This document shows, piece after piece, positions 10,982 through 63,965 of a DNA stretch of 64,000 nt (its first letter is position 1; each line of letters opens with the position of its first letter). The stretch lies in contig NC_092670.1 of the NCBI RefSeq assembly GCF_964355755.1, positions 32,352,388-32,416,387 on the forward strand, written 5' to 3'. The position numbers were made by a program, and so were the translations under genes. Under the pieces are notes generated by a model, which was not told the DNA's origin, made no database searches, and saw only the letters and a program-made list of their open reading frames with translations. This DNA is from Antedon mediterranea (taxonomy: Eukaryota > Animalia > Echinodermata).

Positions 10982-11115
10982 GCATTTAATGAAGAAAGGA
11001 CATAACACTGTTTTAAAAAGCTGTTACGTCAAAAAGTCGAGCGGCGTTTTTTGTAAGAAATATTGTTTGTTCTAACACCATTTTATCACCTTCATTTTAT
11101 ATTTATTTTCCACAG

Positions 11116-23100: not shown

Positions 23101-26100
23101 TACCTTTTATACATAATGTATTTATATATTTTTATCAAATTTTGTAAAATGCTACTTTTCAGCCTTTTGGCTGCCGTTGTATTTTGATGTCTTTTTTATG
23201 AATAAATATACCTAAAAATATAACACAAAGAAAAAAAACCCAGTTATCTTTTTAAAAGTTGTATTATTATCTTTTATTAATGTATTTTAATTTTTGTATG
23301 TTTTTAAGCGTTCCCACTCGACACAGTGTCTAATGTTTCTGTTTTTTTATACCCGTATGTTTTATTGTTGTACTTTTCTACTGTCCTTGTTTTGAGATAA
23401 ATCAATTTAATGAAACTTATCGTCAATTGAACGCCAACAATAAAAAAAGCAAGAAGTAAATGCTAAGTCTAGAATAATATAAGAGCCAAAATAAAATACT
23501 GTATAACCTGAAAATGGGCAAAGGAATAGAAATGTATGATTGTGTTTAATTAATATTGATATTAATGACCTTATAAGCCTTAATTATCTGGAAAATCAAG
23601 CCTATTCTATAATTTATTGTTTTCTAAATGGTACTTTGATTGCATCTTGTATCATCTTGTCTGCTTCTTGGCAATATGTTCAATTGGCAGAGAATGTCTC
23701 AAAAATCATATTATTGTAGTAGCAATTCACAACATTTACAGCATTCATTTCGAAAAAGAAGTGCCCTCTTCAGTTTGCAAAAGTAATCTTGAAAAGAAGC
23801 CCATCCCGAAAAGAATCCCACCCAAGAGCCCTAAAAAATTAAGCCCATGGGCTTCTTATTAAGGTTATATGGTATAATCTTACTTTTTAAAGCTAAAAAC
23901 CATTTTGTAATTTCAACAGGCGAAAAATTTTGAAGAACATATCATTTACTGTCAATGCAGGAGAAACAGTTGCTTTGGTGAGTATTTACTAATGTAACTG
24001 TGTATTGGGCGTGTGGCGCAGTGTGTTGGACGTTGGACTACCGATCGTCAGACCTAGGTTCGAATCCAACTCTCGCCGCATTGCTTGTATCCGTAGGCAA
24101 GATACATTACTTACGTTGCCTCTCTCCACCCAGATGTATAAATGGGTACCCAGTTAGATCTAGACACAACTTTGCGCTGGTTACCGGCTGCATTATGGGA
24201 GTATGTTTCCATACGTGTTTGATCCCCAAAAAATACTGGGGTAATAATGCTTGTAAAGCGCCTTTGAGCATGATTACTCATGAAAAGGGCGCTATATAAA
24301 TGTGGTATTATTATTATTATTATAACTAAAGTTCTGTCTACACTATCAAACTAGGTTGACAAAAAAGTGATGTACCCAAATATGGTAGTTATATGACATC
24401 ATTATTTCCATATATTTTTATTTATTTTATTTCTAAACCCAACCAACAGCAGCAAAATTCGCCAATAACAAGAGGCCATCGCATTCTTTTGTCACATAAA
24501 GTTTGATAGTGTAGACAGAGTAAAACTATTTCAATAGATTATGCATTTGTCGGTTTTTGTATAGAGATATTATAGTGAATAATATAACGATTTTTGCTAA
24601 TTCCAGGTTGGTCCATCTGGAGCAGGTAAAAGTACCATCATCCGTTTACTGTTCCGTTTTTATGATTTAAATGGAGGAGATATTCTTATTGATGGCCAAG
24701 ATATTAAAAAAGTAAGTTGATTCAACTTTTAAATTACATATTGATAATGCAATAGTTAAATAATAAAAAGTAGCTTTGCGTCATAACGCTAAAGTAAGTC
24801 AGATGTTTGCTTTACCCTGCTTTTGAAAACTCATACTAAATGCCAATTTACACAGACGAGCGGTAACGATGATTCTCATCTTTTTGTATCCTATTATTTC
24901 TACAACCTTTTTTGGCAATGTTGCCAGATCTAAAAACCTTGCACACTCTTATCACCTAATGTATTTTTTATCACTTAGATTACACAGAGTTCGTTACGTA
25001 AAGTCATTGGAGTAGTTCCTCAGGACACAGTCCTTTTTAACAATGATATACTGTAAGTACAGTTACAAAGTTCAGTTATAGGCCAATTAATTGATATGTA
25101 ATATGTGTACATATATGTATATAAACGTTTTTATATAATGTTTTCGGAAAGCTCAAAGTAAATTTTAGACATCCAGAGTAACCTAGGGTAAACCGTCACC
25201 TCCTGAGTAATCTAGGATCAACCTTTGCATCCACTAACCTACCCATCCAGGGTAGTTATATTTAACCTGCTTTGACATGCAGGTAAAAGCCATATCCAGG
25301 GTAGTATATTTTTCATCCAGGGTAGTCTATGTTATTATTCACTTTGAAGCATGTTCTGCTGGATTTTAGATACTTGTGCAAATATATGTACTTTACTTTC
25401 ATCTTCTTTAATAGTTACAACATCCGATACGGGTCTGTAAAAAGCAACGATCAAGATGTTGAAGACGCGGCCGTCGCTGCCGATATCCACCATAAGATTC
25501 AACATTTTCCAGAAGGTACAATTGAATCTTTGATATTATTTTATTATTATTATTATTATTACAAGCAAATAAGCTTTTACAGTATTTTTCCCCTAACTCA
25601 TCTGTATCCACTTTTCAACAGTTAAATAAAGGTCAAAGGATAAAGGTTTGTGAATGTTCTTCATTATCTTTTGTAGGTTATGCAACAGTTGTTGGAGAAC
25701 GAGGCTTGAAATTAAGTGGTGGAGAAAAGCAGCGGGTAGCTATTGCAAGGACAGTACTAAAAGCACCAGAGATAGTTCTACTAGATGAGGCAAGTAAAAA
25801 TACTAAAATATTTACTATGTAGCAACATTGTGAACCGCTAGTAGCAATATGGGTCTGTGTAAAATGTAATACTAAATGTCTGTATGATACTATAGCAGTA
25901 TGTGAGTTCCACTATAGCATGTGTGGAGTAGGAGTCTACATGTGTTACTTGTACCAAGATAATGTATTCCACTGTAGCAACTTTTCTGTGTACACCTAGT
26001 AGCAACGTCTGTGTATGACTAGGAGCAGTTATATGCATGTGTTAATACTAGTAGCAACATTATGTATGCCACTGTGTCGACTTAGTAGCAATTTCTGTGT

Positions 26101-29100
26101 CATGAGTAGCAGTATGCACGTGTTACTAGCAGCTTGTGTCTGTGTCTGCCTCTATGTGTCAACAGTGTGCATGTGTTACTAGTAGCAACTTGTGTGCCAC
26201 TAGAAGCAATATGTGTCTGACACTAGTAGCAACATTATGTATGCAACTGTAGCAACATGTGTGTGTGTCCACCTAGTAGCAACATCTATGTGTCAACAGT
26301 GTGTATGTTTTACGAGTAGCAACTTGTGTGCCACTAGAAGCAACATGTTTCTGACACAAGTAGCAACATTATGCATGCCACTGTAGCAACATGTGTGTGT
26401 CCACCTAGTAGCAACGTCTGTGTGTCAACAGTGTGCATGTGTTACTAGTAGCAACTTTTATGCCACTAGAAGCAATATGTTTCTGTCACTAGTAGCAACA
26501 TTATGTATGCCACTGTAGCAACATGTGTGTGTCCACCTAGTAGCAACGTCTGTGTCAACAGTGTGCATGTGTTACTAGTAGCAACTTGTGTGCCACTTAA
26601 AGCAATATGTTTGTGACACTAGTAGCAACATTATGCATGCCACTGTAGCAACATATGTATGTCCACCTAGTAGCAACGTCTGTGTGTCAACAGTGTGCAT
26701 GTGTTACTAGTACCAAAATTGTGTATGCCACTGTAGCAACATGGGTGGAGGTGTGTGGTTGTGTCTGTCCTTCTACAGTAGTAGCAGTATGTATGTGTCA
26801 CTAGTAACAGAAACTGGATATTGCAAAATATAGCATGTCATGCCACTATTATAGCCAAATGCCGCTATGCAACAACATGCCTTAATATTATATGTAACAT
26901 ATGATTTATATAAATCTCTACAAATCTCTCTAGACCACCTTTATACAGTAGTGTGTTTTACAGTCATCATTTTGTTTATTCTGCTACTTGTTATAAACAC
27001 TTATTAATCACATTAATAGCCAATAAATACTCTAATGACAATTAACCTATCTCTTTCTACTTCAACCATTATTTACTACCTCCTTATATGGCTAATTTAC
27101 AGCAATTACACTGTCTGGCTTTTCAACATATTAATATTGTATATATACATAAGGTCTGTGTATTGTGTGTATGGATTGTCCATAATATATTTATAACATG
27201 TCTAAATTAATGTTTACATTTAATTTAAATGCAATTCAGTCATAACATCATATAATAAATAATCTTGAGAAGAAACCTCTATCTGGAGAGATGCCAACCT
27301 TTGGTTGAAATTGTAACAACAGGCAATATATTATGGAGACAGTTTGTAGGGTCTCATAGGAGAAGTATTGAGGGGAAAATATTTGGAACTGTTATGTAAA
27401 GTGTCAAACTAAAATTGGAAATTTAAAAAAAAGAAATACAAAAACTATTACTTAATAAATACTCACTCTTGTAGAGTTCACTTTTGTTACTTTTTACTTA
27501 TATTTGATATTTTTATTTTTATTGTTTTATTCGCTAATTAGATATTATTTAAAGGGTAATGTGTTTAGGAGCTTTGGCTCGTTGCATAGCCCATTTTGTA
27601 TCAAATACCATGTTTTCCGTTCATTTTGATTTAGATTAAACTAAGTGAAATATTCTTGTAAAAAAAATACTGTATATATATAATAGTGATACAAAATAAA
27701 TGATGTCTAGTGCCACAAATAATAATAATAGGTATCCACTTAATAGGAGTTGTACTGTACACAGTTTCTATAATGTCAGATTTATATCTGTATAAATCAT
27801 CTAACTTGTTATTCCCATGCAATAGACTAATGGCAGCCATGCAATATATTTATCATCCTTTTGAATTTGATAATATTAATAAAGCAGTCAATTTTTTAAC
27901 TCATGAAATATTCTCAAAATCATAAACATTCATTATTTGTATAATTTATAATTTATGTTTTTAGAATTATTTGATTGATTTGTTTGTGACACATATTTTA
28001 TAAATTATACAATTAATGAATGTTTATGATTTTGAGAATATTTCATTAAGTTAAAAAATTGACTGCTTTATTTTTTATACGTGATATTTAACCAATCAGA
28101 TTGCAAGAATACAATTAGGTGTGTTATAAATTATACTAACAAATTATGCAAAATTATAATGAAATGAATAATCTGTTTATAGGCAACATCTGCTCTGGAT
28201 ACAAAGACAGAACGAAACATTCAAGCATCGTTAAACAACGTGTGCAACAACCGGACAACAATTGTTGTCGCGCATCGTTTGTCAACAATCATCAACGCAG
28301 ATACGATCCTAGTTCTTCAGGATGGCATGATCGTAGAGCGAGGGCGGTAAGTCACAAAGGCCAAATTTAGAAATTGTTTCTAATCTGATTGATTATGTGT
28401 TTATTTTGTAAAAGGTTTTGCCTTAGGTGTTGTGAATAATTTCCGTTGCGGATTGAATGTATGTTAAGCCATGATTTTGCGGTTGTTTGATAGTATGATT
28501 AAACTCTTTGACCTGTTGAGAAGGTGCTAATCTTTCTATACATTATATCCTCGGGTTGTATCATAATATGTATTTTATTCAGCAGTATGTAATTGCATGA
28601 GATAACTGGTTTGTTTAAATGTAAAGCCTATTCGTAATGAAATTGAGTAATTTTATTTAATTTATTTACTTTCTCACTTTCAGTTTGAATGTAATGTAGA
28701 ATTTGATGGTTTTAGTTTTACAGATACAAGAACTAGTTTTGTTTCCTTTATCTATTTAATCAGCATTATATTAATACAATAATAATTTACAATACAACAC
28801 ATCAAAATAAACAATTTTGGGCAGGGACTGCTTAAGTATGTAACTTAAATCCAGACCTTTATTTAAAGAAATAATAAGTTAAAAACATCATTTTTTGGCC
28901 AAACATAAAAAAAATTATTTATAAAGCGAGGGAAAACCTTCATATGAATCTGAAATACCACCCAAAAAAGATTTGCTGCTTACAACTTGATATGCTTTGG
29001 TTTAGAAGATAGATGTTCTTATTCCTCATTAACATTGTTCCCAAAAGTAGCTGAAAATATCGTAATCTAACCTTTGATGGTTATGTCAAGCGCTGATGGT

Positions 29101-30929: not shown

Positions 30930-31880
30930 TAGACTACACTGGCAAACTTTAGTTTGAAAACTTTAAGCTTGTCAAGAAAAGTTTTCCAAAGTTTGCTATT
31001 GTAGGCCATCAAAAATCTTCAGCAAACAGTTTACAGTCGTAGACTTTAGTTTGCAAACTCGAGCAAACTGCGAGCTTGTCAAGTAAAGGTTTCCCAAAGT
31101 TTGCTATTGTAAACTACAGTAGTTGACAAAGTTCAGCAAACTGCAGAAAACAAGTTTGCAGTTACAATTCTACACTAGCAAAGTTTGGTTTACAAACTCG
31201 AGCAAATTGCGAGCTTTGTCAAGAAAAGTTTTCTAAAATTTGCTATTGTAAACTACAGTAGTTGACAAAATTCAGCAAACTGCAGAAAACAATTTTGCAG
31301 AATTCTACACTAGCAAACTTTGGTTTGCAAACTCGAACAAACTGCTGAAGCTTGTCAGGAAAAGTTTTCCCAGAGTTTGCTATTGTAGACTACATTAGTT
31401 GACAAAGTTCAGCAAACTGCAGAAAACAAGTTTGCTGAATTCTACACTAGCAAACTCGAGCAAATTGCGAGCTTTGTCAAGAAAAGTTTTCTAAAGTTTG
31501 CTATTGTAAACTACAGTAGTTGACACAATTCAGCAAACTGCAGAAAACAATTTTGCAGAATTCTACACTAGCAAACTTTGGTTTGCAAACTCGAACAAAC
31601 TGCTGAAGCTTGTCAGGAAAAGTTTTCCCAGAGTTTGCTATTGTAGACTACATTAGTTGACAAAGTTCAGCAAACTGCAGAAAACAAGTTTGCTGAATTC
31701 TACACTAGCAAACTCGAGCAAACTGCGAGCTTGTCAAGAAAGGTTTTTCCCAAAGTTTGCTAGTGTAGCCTACAGTAGTTGACTAAGTTCAAACAAACAA
31801 ACAAACTTCAGAAACCAAGCTTGTGGAATTCTACACTAGCAAATTTAGTTTCCAAACTCGAGCAAACCCGTAACTCGCTA
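30930..31880 (+). repeat. Satellite with ~120-137-bp units containing internal inverted repeats
   Basis: TCTACACTAGCAAA recurs at about 31170, 31304, 31441, 31562, 31699 and 31830, paired with inverted AGTTTGCTATTGTAG. Confidence 0.85.
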
Positions 31881-31933: not shown

Positions 31934-32515
31934 AAAAGATTTCACATTTCCTTCCCTAGGTCAGGAACCGTGAAAAGATTTCACATTTCCTTCCCTAGGT
32001 CAGGAACCGTGTAAAGATTTCACATTTCCTTCCCTAGGTCAGGAACCGTGAAAAGATTTCACATTTCCTTCCCTAGGTCAGGAACCGTGAAAAGATTTCA
32101 CATTTCCTTCCCTAGGTCAGGAACCGTGAAAAGATTTCACATTTCCTACCCTAGGTCAGGAACCGTGAAAAGATTTCACATTTCCTACCCTAGGTCAGGA
32201 ACCGTGTAAAGATTTCACATTTCCTACCCTAGGTCAGGAACCGTGTAAAGATTTCACATTTCATTCCCTAGGTCAGGAACCGTGAAAATATTTCACATTT
32301 CCTTCCCTAGGTCAGGAACCGTGAAAAGATTTCACATTTCCTTCCCTAGGTCAGGAACCGTGAAAAGATTTCACATTTCCTACCCTAGGTCAGGAACCGT
32401 GAAAAGATTTCACATTTCCTTCCCTAGGTCAGGAACCGTGAAAAGATTTCACATTTCCTTCCCTAGGTCAGGAACCGTGAAAAGATTTCACATTTCCTAC
32501 CCTAGGTCAGGAACC
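31934..32515 (+). repeat. 39-bp minisatellite, ~15 near-identical copies
   Basis: Head-to-tail unit aaaagatttcacatttccttccctaggtcaggaaccgtg with no spacers. Confidence 0.95.
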
Positions 32516-41510: not shown

Positions 41511-42715
41511 TGCCTAAACAAAACCCGTCAAACTGTTTTAATAAATTATTTGAAAAAATAATTGTTCGAGGAAATGAAACAAACATTTATTACATTACGT
41601 GTGTATGATGGTCAGAAGTTTCGTTTTGACAAATACTTGTGAGTATGACCTAATCAGGGAAACTGCAAGTAGTTCAAAGTTTTCGTTATGAAACTTAATT
41701 TCCGCGTTCGATCGTGCACGCGTTTAGTTTATGACAATATGTTTTGCTTTTAATTGCGTAGGCCTACACTAAATATTACATTTCCTTGTTGCGATCGATA
41801 TTTTTACATGACTAATGATATTACTGGCTGTGTATTTAAACTGTAGGCTACATTTGCAAATGATCATAAAGATATCGAAACATAAACAGCGTGAACATGC
41901 ACTTTTTATGCCAGTTAGTGAAAGCATATTAAAGATTACTTGAACCTGAACTTTAGGCCAGTGTCAGTCGAATCTTACGTTCTTTAAACTATTTCGTGTT
42001 GCCATGTACTAGATACCAGAATGTGGGTACACTTTAACAATATAACAACGCAATTCTATCTAGTTTTTAATCCATTGCTTTAATCAAACAATTCTGCATA
42101 ATCGCTTCAGAGTTCAGATTTGTACATTAGAGAGTTTCAAGATTTCCTACAACATTGACATGAGCATTGTGTTGCAATTTAAAGCGAAATTACACAAATT
42201 CGTTGTTCCTGTGTCTTTAGCCATTGAATCTGTATCAGTCAACTATCAGCAAACTCATCCGTACCGATAAAAAACTGAACCTTATGCATGGCCGACGGCG
42301 TGCCGAAGAAAATAGACGCACTATTGACACTCAAAATAGAAAACGTCTAAATACGTCTGTACAATCCACAGTAAACTAGACGCTCGGTATATTCTTCGGA
42401 TAGAAACAATCGAGACGCACCCATACGATCAACCGTGGCGGTAGAAATCAGTAGTCTAAAAGCAAGTGTGTGGATAGAAATATTTAAATAGCACACACGG
42501 TTTGGTGTCAGTGACCTTGCCGAATCATTTCTTCAGCAACACGTAAATACGTCGACGTACATTGTCGTAGAAATAACGGTACGGTGACTTTTTTTGACGA
42601 TTGAATGAAAATTGCATTCGTAGCCTCGACTGAATTTTACTGTTTTTCAGACTTCATATTACAAAAAGTGATGTAACCCTTTCCAACGACCGACAGAAGA
42701 CAACATACACGTAAG

Positions 42716-44122
42716 ATGACGTTCCTTTTTCACTCTTACTGTGTAGTAGTCAGCTTTCTGGTTGCCAGGCGTGCCTCTGCAGTCAAGAAACCTATTAAAT
42801 TTGACTCTCATTATACGTGCCAAACACATACCGGTTCTTTGACAATCTTACCTTCAACTATAAAAGAAAACTTGTTAATAACTTCAGAAACGTTTGGAAT
42901 AAATTACAACAATGATAGTAGATTCAGCAAATACTTTGAGCATTCCTTCCAAGTAAACTGCCAAATCGTGATAACTGTTGATACGCACAATGCCATTTAT
43001 GCATGTCAAGACGCTGGTAATAGATACTATATAATTCCTTCAGATTGGGTTCGCCAAGATTTTCCACCATACAACGATGAATTGATTGTTACTTGTGATG
43101 ATTTCGTGACAGATATCATCGAGGGAGAGGTCGTAACGCTCCCATGTACGGTACAACCACTATTCGAACCTCAGGAAATAATGATTGGATGGCTTCAAGG
43201 AAGCGACAATATCACAACGAAATTCGATGGTTTGAATCAGAACGATACAGTACAATTGAACCAGACGTTTCAAGGCTTCCATTCTGGAGAAGGTATATTC
43301 TTTGTCTGTGTGTCACTCAGATCTAAAAATAACTCTGCAGTGGAAACGCATTGCTATAGTTCGACATTACAGGTGCGTCCTCAATTAACAGTGGACATCA
43401 ACACTTACGTATTATTTCTAGATCAACGGTGCTTTAGATGCAGAGCTAACGGTGGCTCCAGTACTGAGATGGATTACTACTGGACATTAAAAGGTGCTGA
43501 ATTAAATAGAAACAAGAATGAACGCATGTCTGAAAGATGCGTGAACAACTTACCAACTGGTGATTACAACATCAAGTGTCTGGTGAGTACCGATGCTCAG
43601 AACGCTTCTGATGAGTTAGATTTCATTGTTGAAGATACCATAACACTTAATGAACAGGATAGTAGCAACTGGAAGTTGAATGGCAAGTTGATATTCATCC
43701 TGGTAGGGACTATATCGATATTGTTATTTATTGTTGGTATACTTGCAATTACAATATACGTCATGAGAAAACAGCTTAGGCACACTGGTGGCTACCATCA
43801 CAATAACACCCAAACACACGTTGCTGTGAATAGCCAAACCAGTGAACATCCAGACGTCAACATGCAAGTTGAACTTCGACACCATGTTATTTACGATGAA
43901 GCTGCAGCTGACGAACATTTGATCACTCCTGTGGAAGCAGCAAGGCGCATGGTATACAGGACGGATGATGGGGAATACATTAACCTTGCATCAAGTTTTA
44001 ATCTCACTCACAAACCAGAACTTTCGAGCAGCCAACATTCACAAGATATCATTTCTCTGCAAACGTCAGAATTTAGTAATGTATTTGAAGCAGATGATGA
44101 AGCGGAATACATCAATTATTAA
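42716..44122 (+). CDS. Intronless type-I membrane receptor with Ig-like ectodomain and short tyrosine-motif tail (paralog A, 468 aa)
   Basis: Signal peptide ending ...RRASA. Ig-type C-W-C spacing (VVTLPC...IGWLQG...FFVC; FRCRA...YYWT...YNIKC). TM LIFILVGTISILLFIVGILAITIYVM followed by RK. Tail with EYINL and terminal EYINY. Confidence 0.85.
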   Translation: MTFLFHSYCVVVSFLVARRASAVKKPIKFDSHYTCQTHTGSLTILPSTIKENLLITSETFGINYNNDSRFSKYFEHSFQVNCQIVITVDTHNAIYACQDAGNRYYIIPSDWVRQDFPPYNDELIVTCDDFVTDIIEGEVVTLPCTVQPLFEPQEIMIGWLQGSDNITTKFDGLNQNDTVQLNQTFQGFHSGEGIFFVCVSLRSKNNSAVETHCYSSTLQVRPQLTVDINTYVLFLDQRCFRCRANGGSSTEMDYYWTLKGAELNRNKNERMSERCVNNLPTGDYNIKCLVSTDAQNASDELDFIVEDTITLNEQDSSNWKLNGKLIFILVGTISILLFIVGILAITIYVMRKQLRHTGGYHHNNTQTHVAVNSQTSEHPDVNMQVELRHHVIYDEAAADEHLITPVEAARRMVYRTDDGEYINLASSFNLTHKPELSSSQHSQDIISLQTSEFSNVFEADDEAEYINY

Positions 44123-45676
44123 TGCAGTAGAAAGGAATGATTAGGTAGGCTACAATGACGTCACTAAAAATATAAATAGCTGTAAGAAGAACTCTTACTA
44201 TCCTTAATATAGGTAAATCTGAATATAATTTATTTAAATTCGTATAATTAAAAACTTAAATAATGATCTCGCCTTACTAAACTATACCAAAGCCGAGAAG
44301 GTAGACCATAGCTTATTAAAGCCTAATAATAGTAGGCCTACTGGCACAAGGCCAACAATCTAGATTTCCGCATAAACTTGGTCTACGTCGACGTTATGTT
44401 GTTTTCTTTACCATTCTCAAAATATAATCTACCGTATAGTACACTTTCAAAAATGTAACTTTACTTGCCTTTATAATTATAAATACAGCAGAAATTGTTA
44501 GCTTTACAACATGAACATAAGGAACAGCGCATTTCCACTTGGTATAAACATAGGAACATTAGGACCGCAACTTACTCGATTACTGTTCGACATTTCCGTC
44601 TAATCGTGTGGTTTAAATCTCATCCCATAGGCCTACACTGTTTTTAAAATGCAAATACAGCGCAATAATAATATTTGTTTAGAAAGCGCGCCATAAAAAT
44701 ATCGAGTACTACTTTTCTGATTTTTCTCATGAAACAGTACCGTAGCCGGTTGTGTGTAGAAAATAAGTTACTAGGGACCCTTCGATTTTCAAAACTAGGC
44801 CTACGTCATGCGATAATATCGCGACGTATGTCCTCGCTCCCACCTCGACACATGTTTGATAGTTTTTAGGTCCAGGCGACGAACGAAACATCGATTGATC
44901 TCATCTCCGGCTGTCGCAAACCGAAAGCTTCTTACTGTCTGTTGACAACACGTCATGCTAGGTCTACGATACCGTCAAACTATTATGATAAATTGTACAT
45001 AAATAAATTGTTTAAGAACGAAACCAACTTTATTATATTGTGTAATATGGGAACTATGTGTCAGCCCAAATGTCTAGTTTAGCAAAAGTTCCATGTAGTA
45101 TACGCGGGTAACAAAGGTTACTCAAGTTTTGCATCGTCCACTCGGGAAACTCTAGGACGGTCAAAAGTCTAGTAATAAAAAAAAACATTGTTTTTGTTTT
45201 AAATGAATTACCGATACTTTTTGTATTTCCTTGTTGCGATCAATATTTGTACATGCAAATCTAAATCACTGCATAGATACATTTATTATGATTGTAAATC
45301 TTAAAACACAAACAGCTACAACATGATGTATGTTATCCGAAAGTCGTTATAGATCATTCCTTACGATATTTTCGTACCGACAGAAAACAGTGAACTACTG
45401 TGCAGATAGATGCAAAATCGACTGTGTCGATAGACATTTAAAATTACACGGACGGTTCATCTCGGTGTCGAAGGACTTCGAGGTACAGCATTGCAGAAAT
45501 AACGGCACAGTAATTTTCGTCGAAATATCAACGGAGTCTTCTAATATTAAGAATCCCGCTTTAATAAACTTGCATTGGAAAATGATGTACATGATACTGC
45601 AACGGAAGACGTAAACAATATAACATATCGACAGACAAGTTTCGTCACGATTTTTTTTTAAACCTGTGAACTTAAG

Positions 45677-48094
45677 ATGACTTTGTTTCTTATTATTCGC
45701 TGTTACTTTGCAGTAATCAGCTTTCTGGTTGCCAGGCGTGCCTCTGCAGTCATGAACCCTATTAAGTTTGACTCGCATTATACGTGCCAAACACATACCG
45801 GTTCTTTGACAATCTTACCTTCAACTATAAAAGAAAACTTGTTATTAACTTCAGAAACGTTTGGAATAAATTACAACAATGATAGTAGATTCAGCAAATA
45901 CTTTGAGCATTCCTTCCAAGTCAACTGCCAAATCGTGATAACTGTTGATACGCACAATGCCATTTATGCATGTCAAGACGCTGGTAATAGATACTATATA
46001 ATTCCTTCAGGTTGGGTTCGCCAAGATTTTCCACCATACAACGATGCATTGATTGTTACTTGTGATGATTTCGTGACAGATATCATCGAGGGAGAGGTCG
46101 TAACGCTCCCATGTACGGTACAACCACTATTCGAACTTCAGGAAATAATGATTGGATGGCTTCAAGGAAGCGACAATATCACAACGAAATTCGATGGTTT
46201 GAATCAGAACGATACAGTGCAATTGAACCAGACGTTTCAAGGCTTCCATTCTGGAGAAGGTATATTCTTTGTCTGTGTGTCACTCAGATCTAAAAATAAC
46301 TCTGCAGTGGAAACGTATTGCTATAGTTCGACATTACAGGTGCGTCCTCAATTAACAGTGGACATCAACACTTATGTATTATTTCTAGATCAACGGTGCT
46401 TTAGATGCAGAGCTAACGGTGGCTCCAGTACTGGGATGGATTACTACTGGACATTAAAAGGTGCTGAATTAAATAGAAACAAGAATGAACGCATGTCTGA
46501 AAGATGTGTGAACAACTTACCAACTGGTGATTACAACATCAAGTGTCTGGTGAGTACCGATGCTCAGAACGCCTCTGATGAGTTAGATTTCATTGTTGAA
46601 GATACCATAACACTTAATGAACAGGATAGTAGCAACTGGAAGTTGAATGGCAAGTTGATATTCATCCTGGTAGGGACTATATCGATATTGATGTTTATTG
46701 TTGGTTTACTGACATTTCTACTATACGTCATGAGAAAACAAGTTAAACACACTGTTGACTACCACCCCAATGACAACCATACACATGTTTCTGTGAATAA
46801 CCAAACCAGGGATTCAGACACCAACGTGCAATTCGAACATCATAATATTGATGAAACTGAGGCAGCTGTAGTGGATGGTCACCAGCAAACAATCAACCAT
46901 TCAACATTACAGAATTACAGCAGTCGACAGTTATATGGTGCTGATACCGCACAGATGGTCATCAATGAAACATATGATTGCAATGTTGCAGAAGAACCCT
47001 TCAACACCTTTCTGGAAACACCAAACAACAAGACAGATGACAGACAATACGTTAATATTGTAGCAAGCCTCAGTCTTGCTAAAGAACCTCCGAGAAGCCA
47101 CCAGAAACAAGAAGGGTTCATTCCTCTGCAAACGCCAAAGCCCAGCGATGTATGCGAAGAAGATAAATACGTTAATCTTCTATCACGTCGTTTCAATCTC
47201 GCTGAACTTCCGAGAAGCCACCAGAAACAAGAAGTGGTCATTCCTTTGCAAACGCCAAAGCCCGGTGATGTATGCGAAGCAGATAATAAAGATGAATACG
47301 TTAATGTTCTATCACGTTGTTACAATCTCGCTGAACTTCCGAGAAGCCACCAGAAACAAGAAGTGGTCATTCCTTCGCAAACGCCAAAGCCCGGTAATGT
47401 ATGCGAAGCAGATAATAAAGATGAATACGTTAATGTTCTATCACGTTGTTACAATCTCGCTGAACTTCCGAGAAGCCACCAGAAACAAGAAGTGGTCATT
47501 CCTTTGCAAACGCCAAAGCCCGGTGATGTATGCGAAGCAGATAATAAAGATGAATACGTTAATGTTCTATCACGTCGTTACAATCTCGCTGAACTTCCGA
47601 GAAGCCAGCAGAAACAAGAAGTGGTCATTCCTATGCAAACGCCAAAGCCCGGTGATCTATGCGAAGCAGATAATAAAGATGAATACGTTAATGTTCTATC
47701 ACGTCGTTACAATCTCGCTGAACTTATGAGAAGCCACCAGAAACAAGAAGTGGTCATTCCTTCGCAAACGCCAAAGCCCGGTGATCTATGCGAAGAAGAT
47801 GATGAAGATGAATACGTTGATGTTTTATCACGTCGTTTCAGTCTCGCTGAACTTCTGAGAAGCCGCCAGAAAGAAGAAGTGGTCATTCCTTCACAGATGC
47901 CAAAGCCCAGTGACGTAGGCCTATGCGAGAAAGATGATGAAGATGAATATGTTGATCTTCTACCACGTCGTTCCAATCTCGCTCAACTTCCGAGAAGTCA
48001 CCAAAAACAAGAAGCCGTCCTTCCTCTACAAACGTCAGAATCCATAGATATTTGTGAAGCAGTTGAATACGTTAACCTTCCATTTACAAATTGA
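45677..48094 (+). CDS. Intronless type-I membrane receptor with Ig-like ectodomain and long repetitive YVN-motif tail (paralog B, 805 aa)
   Basis: Ectodomain differs from paralog A at 8 residues by eye. TM LIFILVGTISILMFIVGLLTFLLYVM. Tail has 8 modules of ~43 aa and 9 YV[N/D][VLI] motifs. Confidence 0.88.
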   Translation: MTLFLIIRCYFAVISFLVARRASAVMNPIKFDSHYTCQTHTGSLTILPSTIKENLLLTSETFGINYNNDSRFSKYFEHSFQVNCQIVITVDTHNAIYACQDAGNRYYIIPSGWVRQDFPPYNDALIVTCDDFVTDIIEGEVVTLPCTVQPLFELQEIMIGWLQGSDNITTKFDGLNQNDTVQLNQTFQGFHSGEGIFFVCVSLRSKNNSAVETYCYSSTLQVRPQLTVDINTYVLFLDQRCFRCRANGGSSTGMDYYWTLKGAELNRNKNERMSERCVNNLPTGDYNIKCLVSTDAQNASDELDFIVEDTITLNEQDSSNWKLNGKLIFILVGTISILMFIVGLLTFLLYVMRKQVKHTVDYHPNDNHTHVSVNNQTRDSDTNVQFEHHNIDETEAAVVDGHQQTINHSTLQNYSSRQLYGADTAQMVINETYDCNVAEEPFNTFLETPNNKTDDRQYVNIVASLSLAKEPPRSHQKQEGFIPLQTPKPSDVCEEDKYVNLLSRRFNLAELPRSHQKQEVVIPLQTPKPGDVCEADNKDEYVNVLSRCYNLAELPRSHQKQEVVIPSQTPKPGNVCEADNKDEYVNVLSRCYNLAELPRSHQKQEVVIPLQTPKPGDVCEADNKDEYVNVLSRRYNLAELPRSQQKQEVVIPMQTPKPGDLCEADNKDEYVNVLSRRYNLAELMRSHQKQEVVIPSQTPKPGDLCEEDDEDEYVDVLSRRFSLAELLRSRQKEEVVIPSQMPKPSDVGLCEKDDEDEYVDLLPRRSNLAQLPRSHQKQEAVLPLQTSESIDICEAVEYVNLPFTN
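47048..48080 (+). repeat. Coding tandem repeat, 129-bp (43-aa) unit, 8 copies
   Basis: gatgaatacgttaatgttctatc recurs at 47291, 47420, 47549 and 47678. All length variants between units are multiples of 3. Confidence 0.95.
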
Positions 48095-48290
48095 GGGAAA
48101 TTGTGAACGGCAATAACGTCACTAAAAAATGGCGATTTGGGTAGGCCTATACCACCTATAGATTGTAAAAAACTAAAGCAGATTCCGTTATGTTTTTCTA
48201 TGCGGTAGAACTTAAACATCTTACAAACGTTTACAGATAACGCCCATTGCGGTAAATGTGAACACATTTAAATGTGTAGGCCTGTATTAA

Positions 48291-48593
48291 AGATTTATTG
48301 TCCCCCAAAAACATGAAAAATTAAGATTAATTAAATAAGATTTTTAATATGTTATTTGTAGTTTTAATAAAGTTAATCACTTCCATAGAAAAAGAAAGGA
48401 AAAAAAATATAATGTTTTCACCTATAAATTGACTAAATAAATGGTTAAATTCAATTTGGCCATGTTTTGCTTTAAATTAAAGTTTTTTCAGGTAAATACA
48501 TTTTTTTTCGATTCAATTTTTGGTCAAAGTGGATAACTATGTTACATTAAAATGGCATATTTAAGAATTATTTTTCAGGGGGACAATACATCT
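48291..48593. mobile_element. TTAA-flanked MITE (Kolobok-like AG...CT ends)
   Basis: TIR AGATTTATTGTCCCCC...GGGGGACAATACATCT with TTAA at 48287-48290 and 48594-48597. Confidence 0.7.
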
Positions 48594-49065
48594 TTAAATG
48601 TGTAAGAGGACACGGGGCAGAATCGAATATCTCGTGTCCTACATCAATTTTCCGCTGTTTTATTTTCTTCTTGAAATCTAATATACCATCTAGTATGTGG
48701 AGTAAATTTATAACGCTTTCGAACATGTAACACGTTGGAAATTTTAAATACGATTTGTTTGCTTTACAACGTAAACATAGAGCACATAATATGTATAAAT
48801 ATGGGAACCAACATTTTATTATGATTTATACGCAAAGCAGTCGTACATGTTTGCCATTTCCCTCTATTTGTGTACTGAGTTAACAATCTCACATTTTGAA
48901 ATGTAAAGGTGGTTAGATTTAAGCTTGGAATAAGGTCAGGTGATGCGTGCGTCCTACAGTGTTGTGTCAATGCTGCAATATAATAGGTATAGGTATACTT
49001 GTAAATAAGTAATAATCTAAGTTAATAAGTAATTAATCTCATTGATCATTATTGTCGTTACTAAT

Positions 49066-49430
49066 AATGTGTAGGCCTAACTCATATTGTATAAAATAGC
49101 AGTAGCGTATACATAGATTAACGTTCTTCCAGCTAAGGAAACGTCTTCTTAGGCCTACAATGTGTAGGCCTAACTCATATTGTATAAAATAGCAGTAGCG
49201 TATACATAGATTAACGTTCTTCCAGCTAAGGAAACGTCTTCTTAGGCCTACAATGTGTAGGCCTAACTCATATTGTATAAAATAGCAGTAGCGTATACAT
49301 AGATTAACGTTCTTCCAGCTAAGGAAACGTCTTCTTAGGCCTACAATGTGTAGGCCTAACTCATATTGTATAAAATAGCAGTAGCGTATACATAGATTAA
49401 CGTTCTTCCAGCTAAGGAAACGTCCTCTTA
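49066..49430 (+). repeat. 93-bp tandem repeat, ~4 essentially identical copies
   Basis: aatgtgtaggcctaactcatattg... starts at 49066, 49159, 49252 and 49345. Confidence 0.95.
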
Positions 49431-56384: not shown

Positions 56385-59300
56385 ATGGCATATTTTACGA
56401 TATTTATTAGCATATTGTTTATTTTACTCCGGTTTCTTGGATTATCAACCATTGCGTTGTGTGTTGTGCTGGAAGATGATAAGTCGTCAAATGAACTTGT
56501 TCCCCAAGCTTCAAGGAATACGCACGAATATTGGGTGTCACAAGCCGTTGATTTTATTTACCAGTTAGACTGTACGCAAAATAGCCAATTTATTACAAAA
56601 TCCTCCTGTTGGGCGCTAACAAAAACTAGTAGAGACTCCATAAATATCTATATAGCGGCTCATACGAGATCAGGTTCGAGAACCAACAGAAAATTTAACA
56701 CAGTCTTGCCGGACAGTTCTTTAAGGCGGAGTGGGTCACATGAGGCGGTCATTGTAATTGACCCTTTCCCAGAGGCTAACTTTGGACATCTTGTTATTGT
56801 TTTTTATGTGGATAGGAAATCCGAATCGTGCAGAGGCAAGCTTGAGAAATCAATGGGTAAGTAAAAGCTATGTTTACATGCCCAACACACGTGTTTGCTT
56901 TCCTTTTTGGGTCACGTTTAGGTTAACTCCATTTTTTTAGATTCAATTTTTTTATTTAATACGTATGGGCTCATTCGTGTTTAGTTATTTACCCGGGTAA
57001 GTTGGTTTAATGTCAGTTGTTGCTATTGGTGGATTGGAATCAACTTAGGCCTAAATGTCAAATAGCTAGGCGCGGCCTGAGCGGTCATGTCATGTCTCTT
57101 ACAAGGCAAGGAACACGACGTTTGACACGCACGTGAATGTACTCGGTATATTGCCCACAAAACATTGTACATTAAAATAAACCACCAGAGCCCTACAATA
57201 ATTACTAACAAGGGTTGTTCCACGTGGTCCCGACAGGTGTTCAATCATAAAAATAACCATTGTGTTATCCGTTGTACGATAACCCATGTTGTTCAATTAA
57301 AAAATTCAAAGTTGGTAGTATTGAATGTTACCCAAAAATATAAACGTACTAGCGTTGTTAGATATGGCATACGCAGAGCTAAGACGTATATAATTAGGTT
57401 GGTTGAGTAGGCCTACAGTCAATATTATGAAGTTGTATAATAAATACTAAATAAATTTACTCAGTGATTGGGGTCCTCATTCATTGAACGTATTTTATAG
57501 GTAACACCAATCATGAGGATATAAAAACGTAATTACATCGCATTATAAACATAAACAGACACTTAAACATGTAGGCCTATTGTACCGTATGTTTAGGATT
57601 GCTGGCATGTATAGTCTACTTATGAAACATGTATAACTTTCGTGCAATCATATATATATAAAGTTAAAAGAATAGCGTTTGCGCAACGCTATCAGAGAGG
57701 ATAGAACATCATTTGGCATGGGTTCCAGAAGGAGTTTTGACTTAATATTAGTAAAAATATGTTGGCACATATGTCGTTTCATACGTCTACTTCTTGAGCT
57801 TGTATTTCCAGGTATTTCAGAAAAACATCGAAAAGCCTCGAAATAAATACAGACTTAGGGGAAAGTCTACATTTGGCACTGCATCAGGTACCGTAGTAGG
57901 CCTACGCGTTACGTGTCTACACAAGCGTTATTCGTGTGACGCTTTTGGTAATTGTGTGTAACAAGCTATCTGACGCAGTACACACCTGAGAATTTCACAG
58001 GTGTTGAACTTGATCCAGAAGCACGTCTGCTATGATTTATTACATGATCGGAAGGTCGGCAATTGGTAGTAATTTGTACTTGCTCGCTTCATAAAGAGAT
58101 TAAGAATTATTGAATTACCAATGTCAGCCACTTAACTTGTATACTTTTATGGTTGTTTTATGAGTACTGTGTATTGTTTACTCGTTTATGAGAAAGCTAC
58201 TATTTTATGAGGAAAACTTACGACTATAAGTACTAGTATTTTACACGTTGTTATACGCCGTATACGTTGTGTTATGCAATGTACGTTTCCATTTTCGACC
58301 ACTTTAAATCCTAATGTTCGGAAGGTGTGCCTATGCTACCGTATACATTACGAGTTACATACCACTCCCCACTATTCTTCTTATCAATGTTCGCGTCCTA
58401 TTGTTTTCAACATTTCTATAATAATTTAATTTAAAGTGAGTTGACTTAATTCATTTCCACGCGTTGCAAATGGAATCGTGAATGACATAACCGCAAGGTG
58501 TGTTCTGATGAGGGCAACGATACGATTTGAACCAAGACCCCAAACGTAAACCAAATGCCACTCACAATTCAGTTTCTATTATTACTCTGGCTATGCACCA
58601 CTCAAATAAAACCACTTTGTGGAGTGGATACAAGTTCATGGTCTTGATTGAACTCAATACCTATCTATCTTGGGGGAAACGTTAATGTTTAAACTTTAAA
58701 ATATGGTTAGTGGTTAAGCTAATTGAAAGTACTATGAGACATCTAAATCTAAACCTTGTATTGGTTTTAAATTTTGGAAAATTTCGGCGAAATATTGAAT
58801 TTAAAAAAAACCTAATAAAGAGATTAACTTAATTATGTCTCTTAAATTTCTTATAACGAACAATACCACGTGACAGTTGCAACGTGTACTGTTATTAAAT
58901 GCAAATTGTTGCTTTATAATTCAATTTCATTGTAAAGTCAATGGAATGCAAAACAATATTAGGTATTTGAAAATTTTCTAAACCGTACTATAGAATTTAC
59001 AGCAAAATTGTCATTGCACTTCTATCGTTCTGATTGCATTCCATCAACGAATTGAAGTACGAAGCCGTAATCATAGCAACCGTTAGCTATCTTGTCAGAC
59101 GTGAGTACCTGTCTGACTCGTCAGCCGAATTAAATCTCCACCCGTACCGGCAAGATCAAAGGCAAGCCGCCAACGGACAAGGCCTTCCGCGGAGGACTTG
59201 GCTGCATATCTTATTTTCTTGAGTATTTTTATATAAAGCAGTATAATTGATCTCGTGCGTAGGGCCAAAGTATTCACACGCTGGCGCGACTTGGTTGTAA

Positions 59301-62300
59301 TCAATCCGACGAATTGTTACATTTCCTATAATTTCAATGACTTTTCCTGTCGGCTACTTCTAAGAACAAGATGAATAGTAACCCGCTTTACTTTGGCGGC
59401 GGACTTGCATACATGGGCTGATGCCTATTCAAAAGAGGTCTATTAAACGAGACAGAGGCAATAACACCTTCATTTCCCTTTAAGACAGGTCACTCAAAAC
59501 ACCTACGCAAAGCACCCATCGCGCCTATTATTTACGCCGAACGAGTATTTGTCACACATTTCGGACAAAAGCGCTTTTGTTGAGCATTTATTTGTAATCC
59601 GATGAATGTCGTAAGCTATTGATGTAAAACCTAGATTAATGGTATTTTTGTTTTTATCGTCTGATCAATACACGCGCGAGTTTGTTTACAAATTGCTCGA
59701 TTGAAAATGATCTTTCTTAATCCACATAAATCTGTTCTTGAGAATCCGGAAGCTAATATTTTTCATTCATTCATTCACTCGACTCGTCAACAACATTTTT
59801 TATTCAAATTATCATCGTATTTACGTTTTGTATAGGCCTACATGTTACGACATTGCTGGCCAAATGGGAGTGAAGGATTTAGGCCACTAATGTCCGTAAA
59901 CTTTACACAATGTTGTTTGCCGTTGGTTTTCATTAAGCCTACACTCATAATTGTAGCAAATTACAAAATTCTTAGCCCAATATTTATCACAATTTGTTCA
60001 AGACATAGTTATGACGTAGCCTAAATATAAATAGGTCATTTATTATTAAAATATGTACGTTGCGTGGTGATCAAGCAAATGTACAGACTTACTATTACGT
60101 TAGAGGTACAAGCTAATCTACTTGTTAACACTACTATGTCTGATTCTCTTTTTCTTCCTCCACCAACGTACTTCTAGGCTTATGTAAACGCGATTTCAAA
60201 GTTTTCCCATTTCAATGAGAGAAATTCTTCAAAACATTCGTTGTGTACTGAGTTCCTTTATGTTTTTCTCTTCACCTTCGATCTTAAGAATATATGTCTT
60301 CTCGAATAACAACTTTATAAATCAGCCATTGTTCCTCGCCACAAAAGCGTTCGTGACAAATAAATGACGATCCGAGTTTACCTGTGAAGGGTGAAAGAAA
60401 TAACATTCCCCAGCGCTTACGCCAAAAAGGTATTTAAAGTACCAATTATAGGAATTCTTTTCTCCTTTCTTTTGCCACGAACCGCCATGGAAAGAAAGAA
60501 TTTTCACCGGAAAGAATGTTCAAATAGATATTTAAAAGATAGGCCTATCAACGTGTGGTAAAAAGGTGTGGAAAAAGTTATTAAACACGATCTTCTGCGT
60601 TTTTGCGCCGGAACGTTGTCCAATTAAGTAGGCCTACTAAATAGTGACGCTCTAGAGTAAATGCATGTGCACACTGTACTAATAATATATACCAAGTAAA
60701 AAGTGTATCTTCCGGACTGCTGTGAATTAAATGTGTTCATATATTGACGTACCGTAACACATTTTTAGATTTAACACGTTCAGCAGATATTCTTAATATT
60801 ACACGTGGCCATTGTATATCAGTATTCATTTTTCATATTTAGATATTAATGTTAAAATTTAAATATATAATTAAAAGCTAATAATCTTATCTTTTTTTAG
60901 GAAGGGAATGTTTACAAGTAGCAGTCAAGAGCAGATGTAAAAACCGATTAAAGACGTCATCTAAACGACACTGTGAAATCAACATGTTGCCACTAGTATA
61001 CAGAGAGGGTGACAGCGTAAGTGTTTGTGCCTATTTATATCAAGGCAATCTAACAGGATGCGGTTTGTCTGTGGCTGCGACATGGTCATTTCCACTCTAC
61101 GCCTTAACAGACACCGCGCACCGTACTATGTACAGTACTATTGGTATTTGTCGCAGCCAGACATAAGATCAAAGTTCCTATCATGGCAAGGCAAACGTGT
61201 CCTGTTGTTAGATTGCTTTGTTTATATATTTCCAATTTGAAAGAATACTCGATGGCTTGGGTATATGCATACGAAATAAGCTGTAAACCCGGTTCGGTAG
61301 GATTTCTTATTATAGAGAGTCTTGGTTTAAAATTAACTCATTCAACATTCTCAGGGCTACATTGTAGTGATAAATATGTCTGTAACACTGGAGGTACTGT
61401 ACCAACTTCTAGTCGGTCCATACGAACCCAATTGCGGACCAGGATGTTAAAATATAGAATGAACCAAATTGCTTAACTGAAAGATGCGAAGCACATTAAA
61501 TCTAACCTTACTCATACAGCCAATGTTAACCAGTCAGTTACTTTTTTGTATTTACAGTCACATGAACAGCAGTTAAAATGCATTGATTCTCCATTATATG
61601 CAAAGTGTCCGAACTACAGAACAGGGATTAGCAATTTCACGAGAAACTGTGAATTGGAAACTAACACGAAACGGTGCCAAAATCAACGAACAAATGTAAG
61701 TAGTAGGCCTGTCAGTGCTATTGGTCGAATGAAGTGGTTGAATGATATTCGCGCGAATCGGCATGAGTTCTGATTGGTTGTGGATTTTCCTCACGTCACC
61801 ACAAATAGATGAAAATATTAATTACGCATGCGCATTAGTCAACGCTTTCGATTCGCGTGAAAAAATTTGCCTAGTGGAAAACATGGTTAGTGCGTGCGTT
61901 CGGTTACCGAATTTGCGGAACTATAGGCCTATTGTAAGAAATCTGAAGACGTGTTATTTTGTCAAGATACCGCGGTCAATATATAATAATTGTTTAATTT
62001 TGTTTTATTGTTCTGTCTAGTTTGGACGTCGATGTAAATTACACGAAACATGCGATTATGGCGTGATGATATCTGGCGGCTGGAACAGGCAGACTAGTAT
62101 TAAACGACATTCAGAAAACATTAAAAATATGTATTCAATGTTACGAGAGCAAGGCTTCAAGAAACACAATATTAAGATGTTCTTTGCTGACAATACAGAT
62201 ATTGAGCGTAGGTATTTCTTTTATATGAGTAGGCCTAGTTTTACAATAATGTTGAACTTCCCGAAAGCTAGCAGTAGTGGGCTTGGTAAAAAGATCGGGT

Positions 62301-63965
62301 TAAACTGTGAAAAAATAACTGTTCATATTTCGTCTTTACCAAAAGACAATACAAAAGGCATTGACAACAATCTGAAACAATTCAAGAATGGGGGGGGGGG
62401 GTGATGGAGGGGAGTCTTTGTAGTATATAGCAAATTATTATTTCAGTACGTCCTTGTATCAAGAAGAGAAGAAAAAAGAGGATGGGGAGAGAGACTGCCC
62501 AGACACGGTTAGATCGTCTGCCATGAATGGGCCATGTAATATAATTGAGTAGGCCTAGGCTAATCACTGTCCTAGTGCCAATTCCTTGAATGGAAAATTA
62601 TTTGTGGCAACAAATTCTGCGAGTTTTATCCAATTGTTTCCATTATAGTAGTCTGTCTGGGCATTGTCCAATAGCAGCACATGTCAACATAATTCCATTT
62701 TTACATCGTTTTCCACATTTATTTTGATAGGTTTCACTTAATTTTTTATATATTGTATGTGCCGATACAATACAATGACAGATTTTACATTTTATTTTCA
62801 GTGTATGAACAGAGCAATCAGCACGTTGACAACCGTTACCCAGCGACGCAGAAGAATGCGATTCGTAACCATTTGAGCGGTCTTTGTAGCTCAGGTTGTA
62901 ACGTGGATACACTCATACTATACTTGAATAGTCCAGCTCTACCGGATGGAAGAAGTCTGTTATGGGACATTGATGAAAATGGACAGGTACGGTAAATCCG
63001 AGCGCATGACGTAATCATTCGTATAAATCCTAACGTATGACGTAAACATTCGTAATTTAAGCGTGTGACGTAAATATTCGTATAAATCCTAGCCTATGAC
63101 GTAAACGTTCGTAATCCAAGCGTATGACGTCAATATTCGTATAAATCCCAGCGTGTAACGTAAACATTCGTATAAATCCCACCGTGTGACGTAAACATTC
63201 GTATAAATGCGAGCGTATGAAGTAAACATTCAAAATATTAATTACATTTTTTATTTGTTTTGTTTTTTAAGATGGCAGCCAGTGAAATGATCAGCGTAAG
63301 GGAGATATTGGAGGACATATCGGATTGTAAAGCTTCGCATGTCTATCTGATTGTGGATCAAAGTTATTCGGGTATTTTCGCCGAAGAAATAAGAAAATCG
63401 AAAACTCACGAAAATGTAGTTGTGTTCACAAGCGGAAATAAAACGGAATATTCATGGAGAAGTGACCTGACCAATGCATGGTCATACAGCAACCACACGC
63501 AGCAATGTGTAGATGAGGTGTATGAGGTAGGCCCTACCGTATTCTACATTACTGTTGTTATCATCATTGTGTACCGTAATCGTTATTTCTAATCGTCATT
63601 ATTATGTTATCCTATTCATAATAATATCGTCATAATCATCGTGTTATTGGAATTATCATTATTATCGTGTTAGTCATTGTTAACGTCATTGCTATGTTTT
63701 TATATCCATATGTCATCTATACCGTCCTCCCAAAAACGGCCGATTTCCATGTAAAGAAATTGTAGACTTACTGAAATGTGTGTGTTTTATATTCTAGATC
63801 TACTCGGATTCATTCACAAACTCGAATCCTAGGATGATGGAAGGATCGGCAAACGCAGCCAACTCAACGGTATTCGGAGGTCACCCGTGCTATCTGTTAC
63901 CATTCATGTCGAACAAGGAAATCCGCTCGACTTTTACGGGGTGCAGATACAGGCCGTACGGCTAG
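56385..63965 (+). CDS. Secreted Cys-rich protein with legumain/GPI8 (peptidase C13, clan CD)-like domain, probably catalytically inactive; 7 exons: 56385-56856, 60901-61016, 61558-61695, 62021-62207, 62802-62986, 63272-63526, 63798-63965 (506 aa)
   Basis: All introns are GT-AG with compatible phases (1521 nt total). Signal peptide MAYFTIFISILFILLRFLGLSTIALC. Clan-CD-like motif order: GVMISGG, MYSMLREQGFKKHNIKMFFAD, LILYLNSPA, VYLIVDQSYSG, NVVVFTSGNKTEYSW. Stop TAG at 63963-63965 and AATAAA at 63980. Confidence 0.85.
61041..61220. mobile_element. Hairpin MITE family, copy B
   Basis: TIR caaggcaatctaaca...tgttagattgctttg with an internal ggctgcgac/gtcgcagcc stem. Homologous to 35125-35368. Confidence 0.65.
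63001..63232 (+). repeat. Intronic 28/31-bp minisatellite, 8 units with TGACGT(A/C)A cores
   Basis: TGACGT at 63007, 63038, 63066, 63097, 63125 and 63187, plus two variant units. Confidence 0.85.

Follow-up and report, generated by a model that had tools for sequence, protein, structure and literature searches.

Paired receptors are defined by similar ectodomains encoded in a small gene cluster, one member carrying a tyrosine-based inhibitory motif of immunoreceptors (ITIM) and an activating member carrying either a short tail with a charged helix or a tyrosine-based activation motif of immunoreceptors (ITAM), the members giving opposite signals and being expressed on overlapping immune cells (PMC3533184). 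In the Siglec-11/16 pair and the Xenopus and mammalian CEACAM pairs, the genes are clustered, their immunoglobulin (Ig)-type ectodomains are homogenised within species, the tails are divergent and orthologs diversify (PMC5701461, PMC5112662). Among invertebrates, Hydractinia has the Alr cluster, whose products are single-pass Ig-type proteins with an unusual three-domain build and tails that vary in their tyrosine motifs (10.1101/2022.03.04.482883). Here, a stretch of 64,000 nucleotides (nt) from the crinoid Antedon mediterranea (contig NC_092670.1, positions 32,352,388 to 32,416,387 of the forward strand; hereafter the window) was analysed. It holds two tandem genes, A and B, whose products share nearly the same ectodomain and carry one tyrosine-motif tail module in different copy number. 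Coordinates count from the first letter of the window and are collected in Table 1.

A and B are uninterrupted + strand open reading frames (ORFs) separated by a gap of 1,554 nt. By hydropathy, each has a hydrophobic N-terminus and a single transmembrane segment, and each product has ~300 extracellular residues, six N-glycosylation sequons and an acidic tail. The mature ectodomains differ at 8 of ~300 amino acids (aa), namely at A residues 24, 25, 55, 110, 122, 152, 212 and 251. The original prediction of two tandem type-I genes is borne out by the ORFs, by hydropathy and by the contigs and depth described below; its ~300-aa ectodomain with 8 differences matches the count exactly, and its transmembrane segments without a charged residue hold for both helices. 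No additional family copy was found within the 64-kb window. By eye, a pyrimidine tract ending in CAG (42630-42651), 65 nt before the A start codon, could be an intron acceptor of the 5' untranslated region; no splice joint was present among the contigs aligned there. Rfam returned no matches in 40-52 kb.

Contigs and their depth agree with two loci. In run X2, one contig covers 43694-45382: it begins in the A helix, takes in the A tail and ends 295 nt short of the B start, and 1 of its letters differs. Depth in this run is 280-332 over unique parts of A, of B and of both flanks and 496-516 over ectodomain contigs, a ratio of 1.66-1.73, as a two-copy model predicts.

Divergence between the two genes is sharply bounded. 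Within a tract covering the ectodomain, 15/972 nt differ (1.5%), against 7/36 in the first codons and 33/153 just after (in total 40/189, ~21%; p 1e-21 for the tract versus flanking coding parts), and 0 of 10,000 permutations yielded such a tract. Synonymous divergence (pS) is 0.034 in the tract and 0.275 outside it, and nonsynonymous divergence (pN) in the tract is 0.010; because synonymous divergence drops too, protein-level constraint alone is insufficient to explain the tract. It ends in mid-helix, before a gap-free diverged stretch of 48 codons (codons 337-384; pN 0.31, pS 0.28, about equal), and its copies lie 2,967 nt apart. Faint homology between patches upstream of both genes indicates that the duplication is old and took in upstream DNA; the 3' flanks share an 18-nt match that did not reach significance (16/500 shuffles). 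We strongly infer that A and B arose by an old whole-gene duplication and that their ectodomains were homogenised by gene conversion after a species split, in both lineages.

The timing comes from a related species, represented by the displayed contigs of three samples from one study (runs X6, X8 and X9). These covered the upstream part and tail of A, and the upstream part, transmembrane part, repeats and end of B; none bridged A and B. Over the ectodomain, the second species differed from the window at 25/699 (X6), 28/699 (X8) and 31/750 (X9) positions (3.6-4.1%), more than A differs from B (p 0.009, 0.003 and 0.001, respectively). The paralogs are thus closer than the orthologs, which implies conversion after the split, barring a strong rate difference. 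Such a difference is argued against because contig depth in the second species implies low paralog divergence: most of its ectodomain contigs stood at 1.5-1.6x single-copy depth, and the depths of 5/7 imply ~1.5-2.3% divergence. Applied to the window's organism, the same method gave 1.1-1.5% against a true 1.5%. The case for conversion is made of this divergence pattern and of contig depth, the second-species sequences being unphased. Conversion was likely recurrent, holding the ectodomains together. At 43141 and 43174, where both window paralogs differ from the second species, a low-depth contig of another sample of the window's organism (X5) carries the second-species letter; on this one contig, the sharing could be very recent conversion.

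Domain 1 is apparently the fastest-changing part between species, with 18/292 differences on its side against 13/458 in domains 2-3 (X9, p 0.04). Among the differences listed (40 of 415 and 40 of 280), 8/9 codon changes in domain 1 were non-synonymous, and at least 15 changes in the coding part of the A tail introduced no stop and touched neither of its two motifs. That 15/15 second-species changes fell at sites where A equals B is the chance expectation and was not counted as a separate test.

The tails diverge from one another in kind and in number. That of A (116 aa) has two [DE]Y[IV]N motifs, and 0/20,000 shuffles gave as many. The modules of B carry YVNI, YVNL, YVNV (four times), YVDV and YVDL, with an extra YNL tyrosine 8 residues downstream of the motif in four of them; with the terminal VEYVNL, B has nine YV[N/D] motifs, seven of them YxN sites spaced ~43 residues apart and two YVD[V/L]. 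Acidic residues directly precede every motif of A and B on the N-terminal side. VEYVNL fits the ITIM consensus [ILVS]xYxx[ILV] as a motif match only, and A has no ITIM match. Yxx[LIV] is matched by 9/9 B motifs, and the hydrophobic residue at -2 of an ITIM is missing from 8/9. Motif scans of both tails found no ITAM and no YxxM. The original prediction was correct in giving A one ~44-aa module bounded by EYINL and EYINY (Y421, Y465) and B eight copies with nine YV[N/D] motifs. Its statement that neither gene has a canonical ITIM stands for A but not for B, and its reading of the motifs as Grb2-type YxN sites stands for seven of the nine in B but not for the two YVD[V/L].

The A module is 63-75% identical to the B modules in DNA, and modules B2-B6 share 93-98% identity with one another, a sign that they were amplified or homogenised recently; the comparison argues strongly that amplification in B was recent. 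Among B2-B6, 13 sites vary, none synonymous and none in the Y-V-N core (a weak signal, p ~0.04, the sites being linked). A module tree was unrooted and had no starred branch, and gain in B versus loss in A was left unordered. In the spacer of B before its first module, 114 nt (46912-47027, a multiple of three) are missing from a second-species contig, so B tail length also varies between species.

These tails were compared with known tyrosine-motif systems. ITT-like (immunoglobulin tail tyrosine) motifs of the membrane IgG tail, DAP10 and CD28 share with A and B a YxN core that is a predicted Grb2 recruiter after phosphorylation by Src or Syk (PMC4263166), but have one motif where A has two and B seven, here without YxxM. 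The adaptors LAT, NTAL, FRS2 and IRS-1, and nephrin, in which valency sets clustering, resemble A and B in that numerous YxN sites lie on a tail that is acidic and probably disordered; multiple YxN sites, as in LAT and NTAL, occur in the tails of both B (seven) and A (two). The nephrin tail uses Nck, not Grb2. LAT and NTAL have few extracellular residues, whereas A and B fuse their scaffold, made of tandem DNA repeats, to a 300-aa, three-domain, putatively ligand-binding ectodomain.

The ectodomain was modelled from a six-row alignment of both paralogs, three family members and one crinoid Ig stretch over domains 2-3; this added row may bias domains 2-3 toward an Ig answer. The model (predicted local distance difference test, pLDDT, 74.5) has three all-beta domains; a single-sequence model was of low confidence (pLDDT 37). 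Domains 2-3 matched CD22, FcRL5 and FcRLA at Z 8-9.5, tied with Fn3-like and other sandwiches. Pfam gave an Ig_3 match in domain 3 only (E 0.0017, below the Pfam cut-off), PDB sequence searches gave weak Ig matches only (best E 0.024 and 0.02), and a library of viral folds returned only beta sandwiches of a generic kind. Domains 2 and 3, each with a C-W-C pin in its sequence, are predicted from the model to be Ig-like, with weak sequence matches. Domain 1 keeps a Cys pair (C82/C97) across the family; it was barely covered by the fold-search rows of the whole model, so that an absent match says little, and a structure atlas placed it with unnamed clusters at 0.91-0.92, V-set leads scoring <0.9. 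The Ig-like ectodomain of the original prediction, followed up by structure prediction and hidden Markov model search, thus stands for domains 2-3; for domain 1, no confident family emerged.

A HMMER scan of 1.84 billion representative proteins gave 10 matches at E <= 0.001. The closest were two uncharacterised proteins of A. mediterranea, XP_071950092 (P0001, E 1e-48) and XP_071957072 (P0002, E 9e-31), of the same ectodomain family (37-38% identity) but with different tails or length: P0001 has an unrelated, Lys-rich tail without YxN or ITIM, and P0002 is a shorter protein (249 aa). A weaker match was an unnamed 133-aa fragment; the remaining named ones, from a crinoid, an oyster and fishes, were generic Ig proteins. 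Alr, a family marked by high allelic polymorphism and homophilic binding, was not among the named matches (9/10 were looked up, and absence does not exclude homology). Alr proteins differ in combining V-set, I-set and Fn3-like domains and in carrying ITAMs or ITIMs (10.1101/2022.03.04.482883), domains 2-3 of A and B keeping the C-W-C pin. A word-index homolog search found nothing with A and only P0004 with a four-sequence profile; it missed P0001 and P0002 and is hence insensitive. The P0001 gene probably lies near the window, its accession number being 8 above that of the downstream gene. Over domain 3 (43570-43606 and 46537-46583), 4-8 short contigs per run pile up in both organisms with conservative codon changes, a hint of further, more distant paralogs elsewhere in the genome. 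The Anneissia japonica protein XP_033099058 (P0005) is a crinoid Ig receptor similar over domains 2-3 whose tail has the ITIM matches VQYASV, IIYLNV and LQYADL; classical inhibitory-type tails therefore exist in crinoids too.

Acidic residues upstream of tyrosine are preferred by Src- and Syk-family kinases. In the reading we tentatively prefer, held at somewhat less than even confidence, A and B would bind the same ligand, their output would be set mainly by the number of docking sites and their ectodomains would be kept alike by conversion. Ligand clustering would lead a Src- or Syk-family kinase to phosphorylate the acidic-flanked tail tyrosines, and the resulting pY-[VI]-N-hydrophobic sites would dock Grb2-family SH2 domains. 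YxN is the reported high-affinity Grb2 type: ShcA pYVNV binds Grb2 at 23-53 nM, IRS-1 pYVNI binds Grb2 and also the SHP2 N-SH2 domain (the latter at ~2 uM), and pYIDL binds SHP2 and not Grb2 (PMC3514216). B, with its seven YxN sites, would then build a multivalent LAT-like network, its YVD sites and its terminal ITIM drawing in SHP2. The two sites of A would leave it short of the clustering threshold, so that it would signal weakly or compete for ligand and adaptor. In the nephrin tail, three pY cluster, two do so only at far higher concentration and one never does (PMC4238058); LAT-Grb2-SOS builds condensates of this sort (PMC13729540), and NTAL, a negative regulator that bears five YxN sites, is a proposed LAT competitor (PMC2211846). 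A non-self ligand, pathogen or allogeneic, would be the likeliest reason for conversion together with a fast-changing distal domain. A bolder version, which we regard as doubtful, is that an independently evolved crinoid pair built on the common Grb2 module straddles the condensation threshold, B (7-9 sites) nucleating signalling clusters and A (2 sites) capping them while bound to the same non-self ligand, with conversion locking specificity, the tandem repeat tuning gain and the ligand read by the unnamed beta domain.

Several points weigh against the preferred reading. Co-expression, a shared ligand, phosphorylation and SH2 binding of A and B are predictions; the SH2 specificities are borrowed from mammalian proteins, and every signalling step is an analogy. 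Because the two tails are unlike in kind and not only in number, and because the multi-YxN adaptor NTAL can be negative, the output could be of either sign; the ITIM match and two YVD[V/L] sites of B also weaken the original claim that docking number operates rather than an ITIM. To judge from P0001, the YxN tail is not family-wide. Conversion is possible without selection between genes 3 kb apart. A short domain-1 contig stood at 1.1x single-copy depth in both X6 and X8 (2/7 contigs), and the domain-1 excess comes from low-depth contigs of a single run. Finally, the public protein collection contains the product of the neighbouring gene but not the exact A and B sequences, an absence that may reflect missing transcript support.

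An alternative without functional pairing, which we hold to be unlikely yet worth weighing, is that conversion was passive, that accumulated divergence sets the tract ends and that the B tail is a slippage-expanded coding minisatellite, the two genes perhaps working in separate tissues or serving in adhesion or development. The closeness of the two copies, the near-equal pN and pS of codons 337-384, the likeness of B2-B6 and the unrelated P0001 tail fit it. It sits poorly with a tract that takes in the mature ectodomain and breaks off in mid-helix ahead of a gap-free diverged stretch, with retention of both genes in a second species and with a Y-V-N core constant among the variable B2-B6 sites.

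Slightly less likely still, in our estimate, is a pair of opposite sign, in which B would be inhibitory through SHP2-type phosphatases at its ITIM and YxxL/V sites and A a Grb2-coupled activating or decoy partner. It draws on the single consensus ITIM in B with none in A, on the fit of all nine B motifs to Yxx[LIV], on the SHP2 affinities of pYVNI and pYIDL (PMC3514216) and on the vertebrate pattern of conversion between inhibitory and activating partners (PMC5701461, PMC5112662). Against this, eight of the nine B motifs want the -2 hydrophobic residue, a single change at which can create one ITIM match; seven are of the high-affinity Grb2 type; and A is built from a homologous module without an ITAM or charged helix.

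It is improbable that A, B or both are silent or in decay. Their absence from the protein collection would fit it, and the lack of synonymous change among the 13 variable B2-B6 sites suits relaxed constraint as well as selection; but both ORFs are intact, pN in the tract is below pS and the second-species changes listed for the A tail spare its motifs and bring in no stop. In X9, a run of unrecorded kind, contigs tile most of 42777-44713, to 590 nt past the A stop, with the shape of an A transcript, which is only a hint; contigs were lacking upstream of A and over the unique parts of B, missing cover being no evidence. X5, guessed to be RNA, was rejected as expression evidence, its intergenic and genic pieces having the same low depth. 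Least credible is that A and B are alleles or haplotigs assembled in tandem, a refuting case named with the original prediction: no displayed contig spans the whole pair, 45383-45413 (31 nt) is unbridged in X2 and X2 is possibly the same sample as the window, but the X2 contig reaching almost to the B start, the two-copy depth and the presence of both tails in the second species favour two real tandem loci and largely refute it.

Table 1. Features of the A/B locus, in window coordinates.
Feature	Position	Strand	Basis
Gene A, single ORF, type-I membrane protein, 468 aa	42716-44122	+	ORF list, hydropathy
Gene B, single ORF, type-I membrane protein, 805 aa	45677-48094	+	ORF list
A domain 1, ~residues 23-120, all-beta in model, no named fold found	42782-43075	+	model, fold search
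A domain 2, ~residues 121-221, Ig-like beta sandwich (predicted), C144-W159-C198	43076-43378	+	model, sequence pin
A domain 3, ~residues 222-307, Ig-like beta sandwich (predicted), C242-W256-C288	43379-43636	+	Ig_3, model
A transmembrane helix L325-M350, without charged residue	43688-43765	+	hydropathy
B transmembrane helix L327-M352, without charged residue	46655-46732	+	hydropathy
A tail, one 44-aa module, acidic-flanked YINL (Y421) and C-terminal YINY (Y465)	43976-44119	+	motif scan
B tail, 8 modules of 120-135 nt (40-45 aa)	47048-48067	+	repeat and motif analysis
B terminal motif VEYVNL, residues 796-801, consensus ITIM and YxN site	48062-48079	+	motif scan
Homogenised tract in A, codons 13-336, inferred gene-conversion tract	42752-43723	+	A/B comparison
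Homogenised B tract: ectodomain plus first half of transmembrane helix	45719-46690	+	A/B comparison
Patch upstream of A, faintly homologous to 45414-45576	42458-42618	+	0/300 shuffles reached score
Faintly homologous upstream patch of B	45414-45576	+	0/300 shuffles reached score

Downstream of the pair, a multi-exon gene (56385-63962, +) was matched in seven pieces by A. mediterranea XP_071950084 (90-100% per piece) and by Anneissia japonica (69-87% per piece); it has Pfam PF01650, which we take to be peptidase C13. These crinoid matches, which by themselves would place the window in this feather star or a very close relative, support the invertebrate origin originally proposed for the system. 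Upstream, ABC transporter pieces with MTABC_N and ABC_tran lie at 11017-11376 and 25526-25819 (+; Pfam, 36/123 stop-to-stop ORFs scanned) and are presumably ABCB6-like. ORFs at 4758-5894 (-), 6807-7334 (+) and 21225-23018 (+) resemble, by eye, fragments of LINE (long interspersed nuclear element)-type reverse transcriptase. A very high-copy repeat (48287-48600; summed depth 1e4-1e6 in all four runs) lies just 3' of B, and a smaller multi-copy element (~44839-44881) lies between A and B. Non-coding tandem arrays occur at 31934-32515 (unit 39 nt), 49066-49430 (93), 13115-13684 (145), 26151-26724 (132) and 31043-31791 (137).

A and B form a genuine receptor pair, lineage-restricted and apparently not annotated, and the evidence that their ectodomains alone evolved in concert is good. 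They share with Siglec-11/16 and the CEACAM pairs the clustering, the homogenised ectodomains, the divergent tails and the diversifying orthologs, and differ in that both tails come from one homologous module of differing copy number, in being single-ORF genes and in their crinoid host; no sequence homology to those systems was found. They have similar ectodomains, a small cluster and one member with an ITIM motif, and fall outside the classical paired-receptor definition (PMC3533184) because an ITAM is absent from both, as is a short tail combined with a charged helix. Concerted ectodomain evolution thus adds support to the paired-receptor system originally proposed, though not as a classical inhibitory/activating pair. 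No description of this family, or of an echinoderm receptor pair coupled by conversion, was found in the accessible text of the literature searched, including the reviews PMC11999971 and PMC2248247 (subscription papers mostly fell outside it, and supplements were excluded). To judge from the DNA comparison, what is new is the sharply bounded tract; the copy-number difference of one tail module is unusual.

Shared ectodomains joined to outputs of unequal strength have so far been described mainly for vertebrate immune receptors, and conversion confined to the ectodomains of receptors whose tails differ is the evolutionary signature of the pathogen-driven vertebrate pairs. A and B are apparently missing from public protein sets, so that annotation-based surveys would overlook them. 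If co-expressed, the two genes would form a natural two-point experiment, 2 versus 9 sites on one ligand, on whether phosphotyrosine valency can by itself encode different outputs, and they would provide crinoids with a first candidate family of Ig-type signalling receptors.

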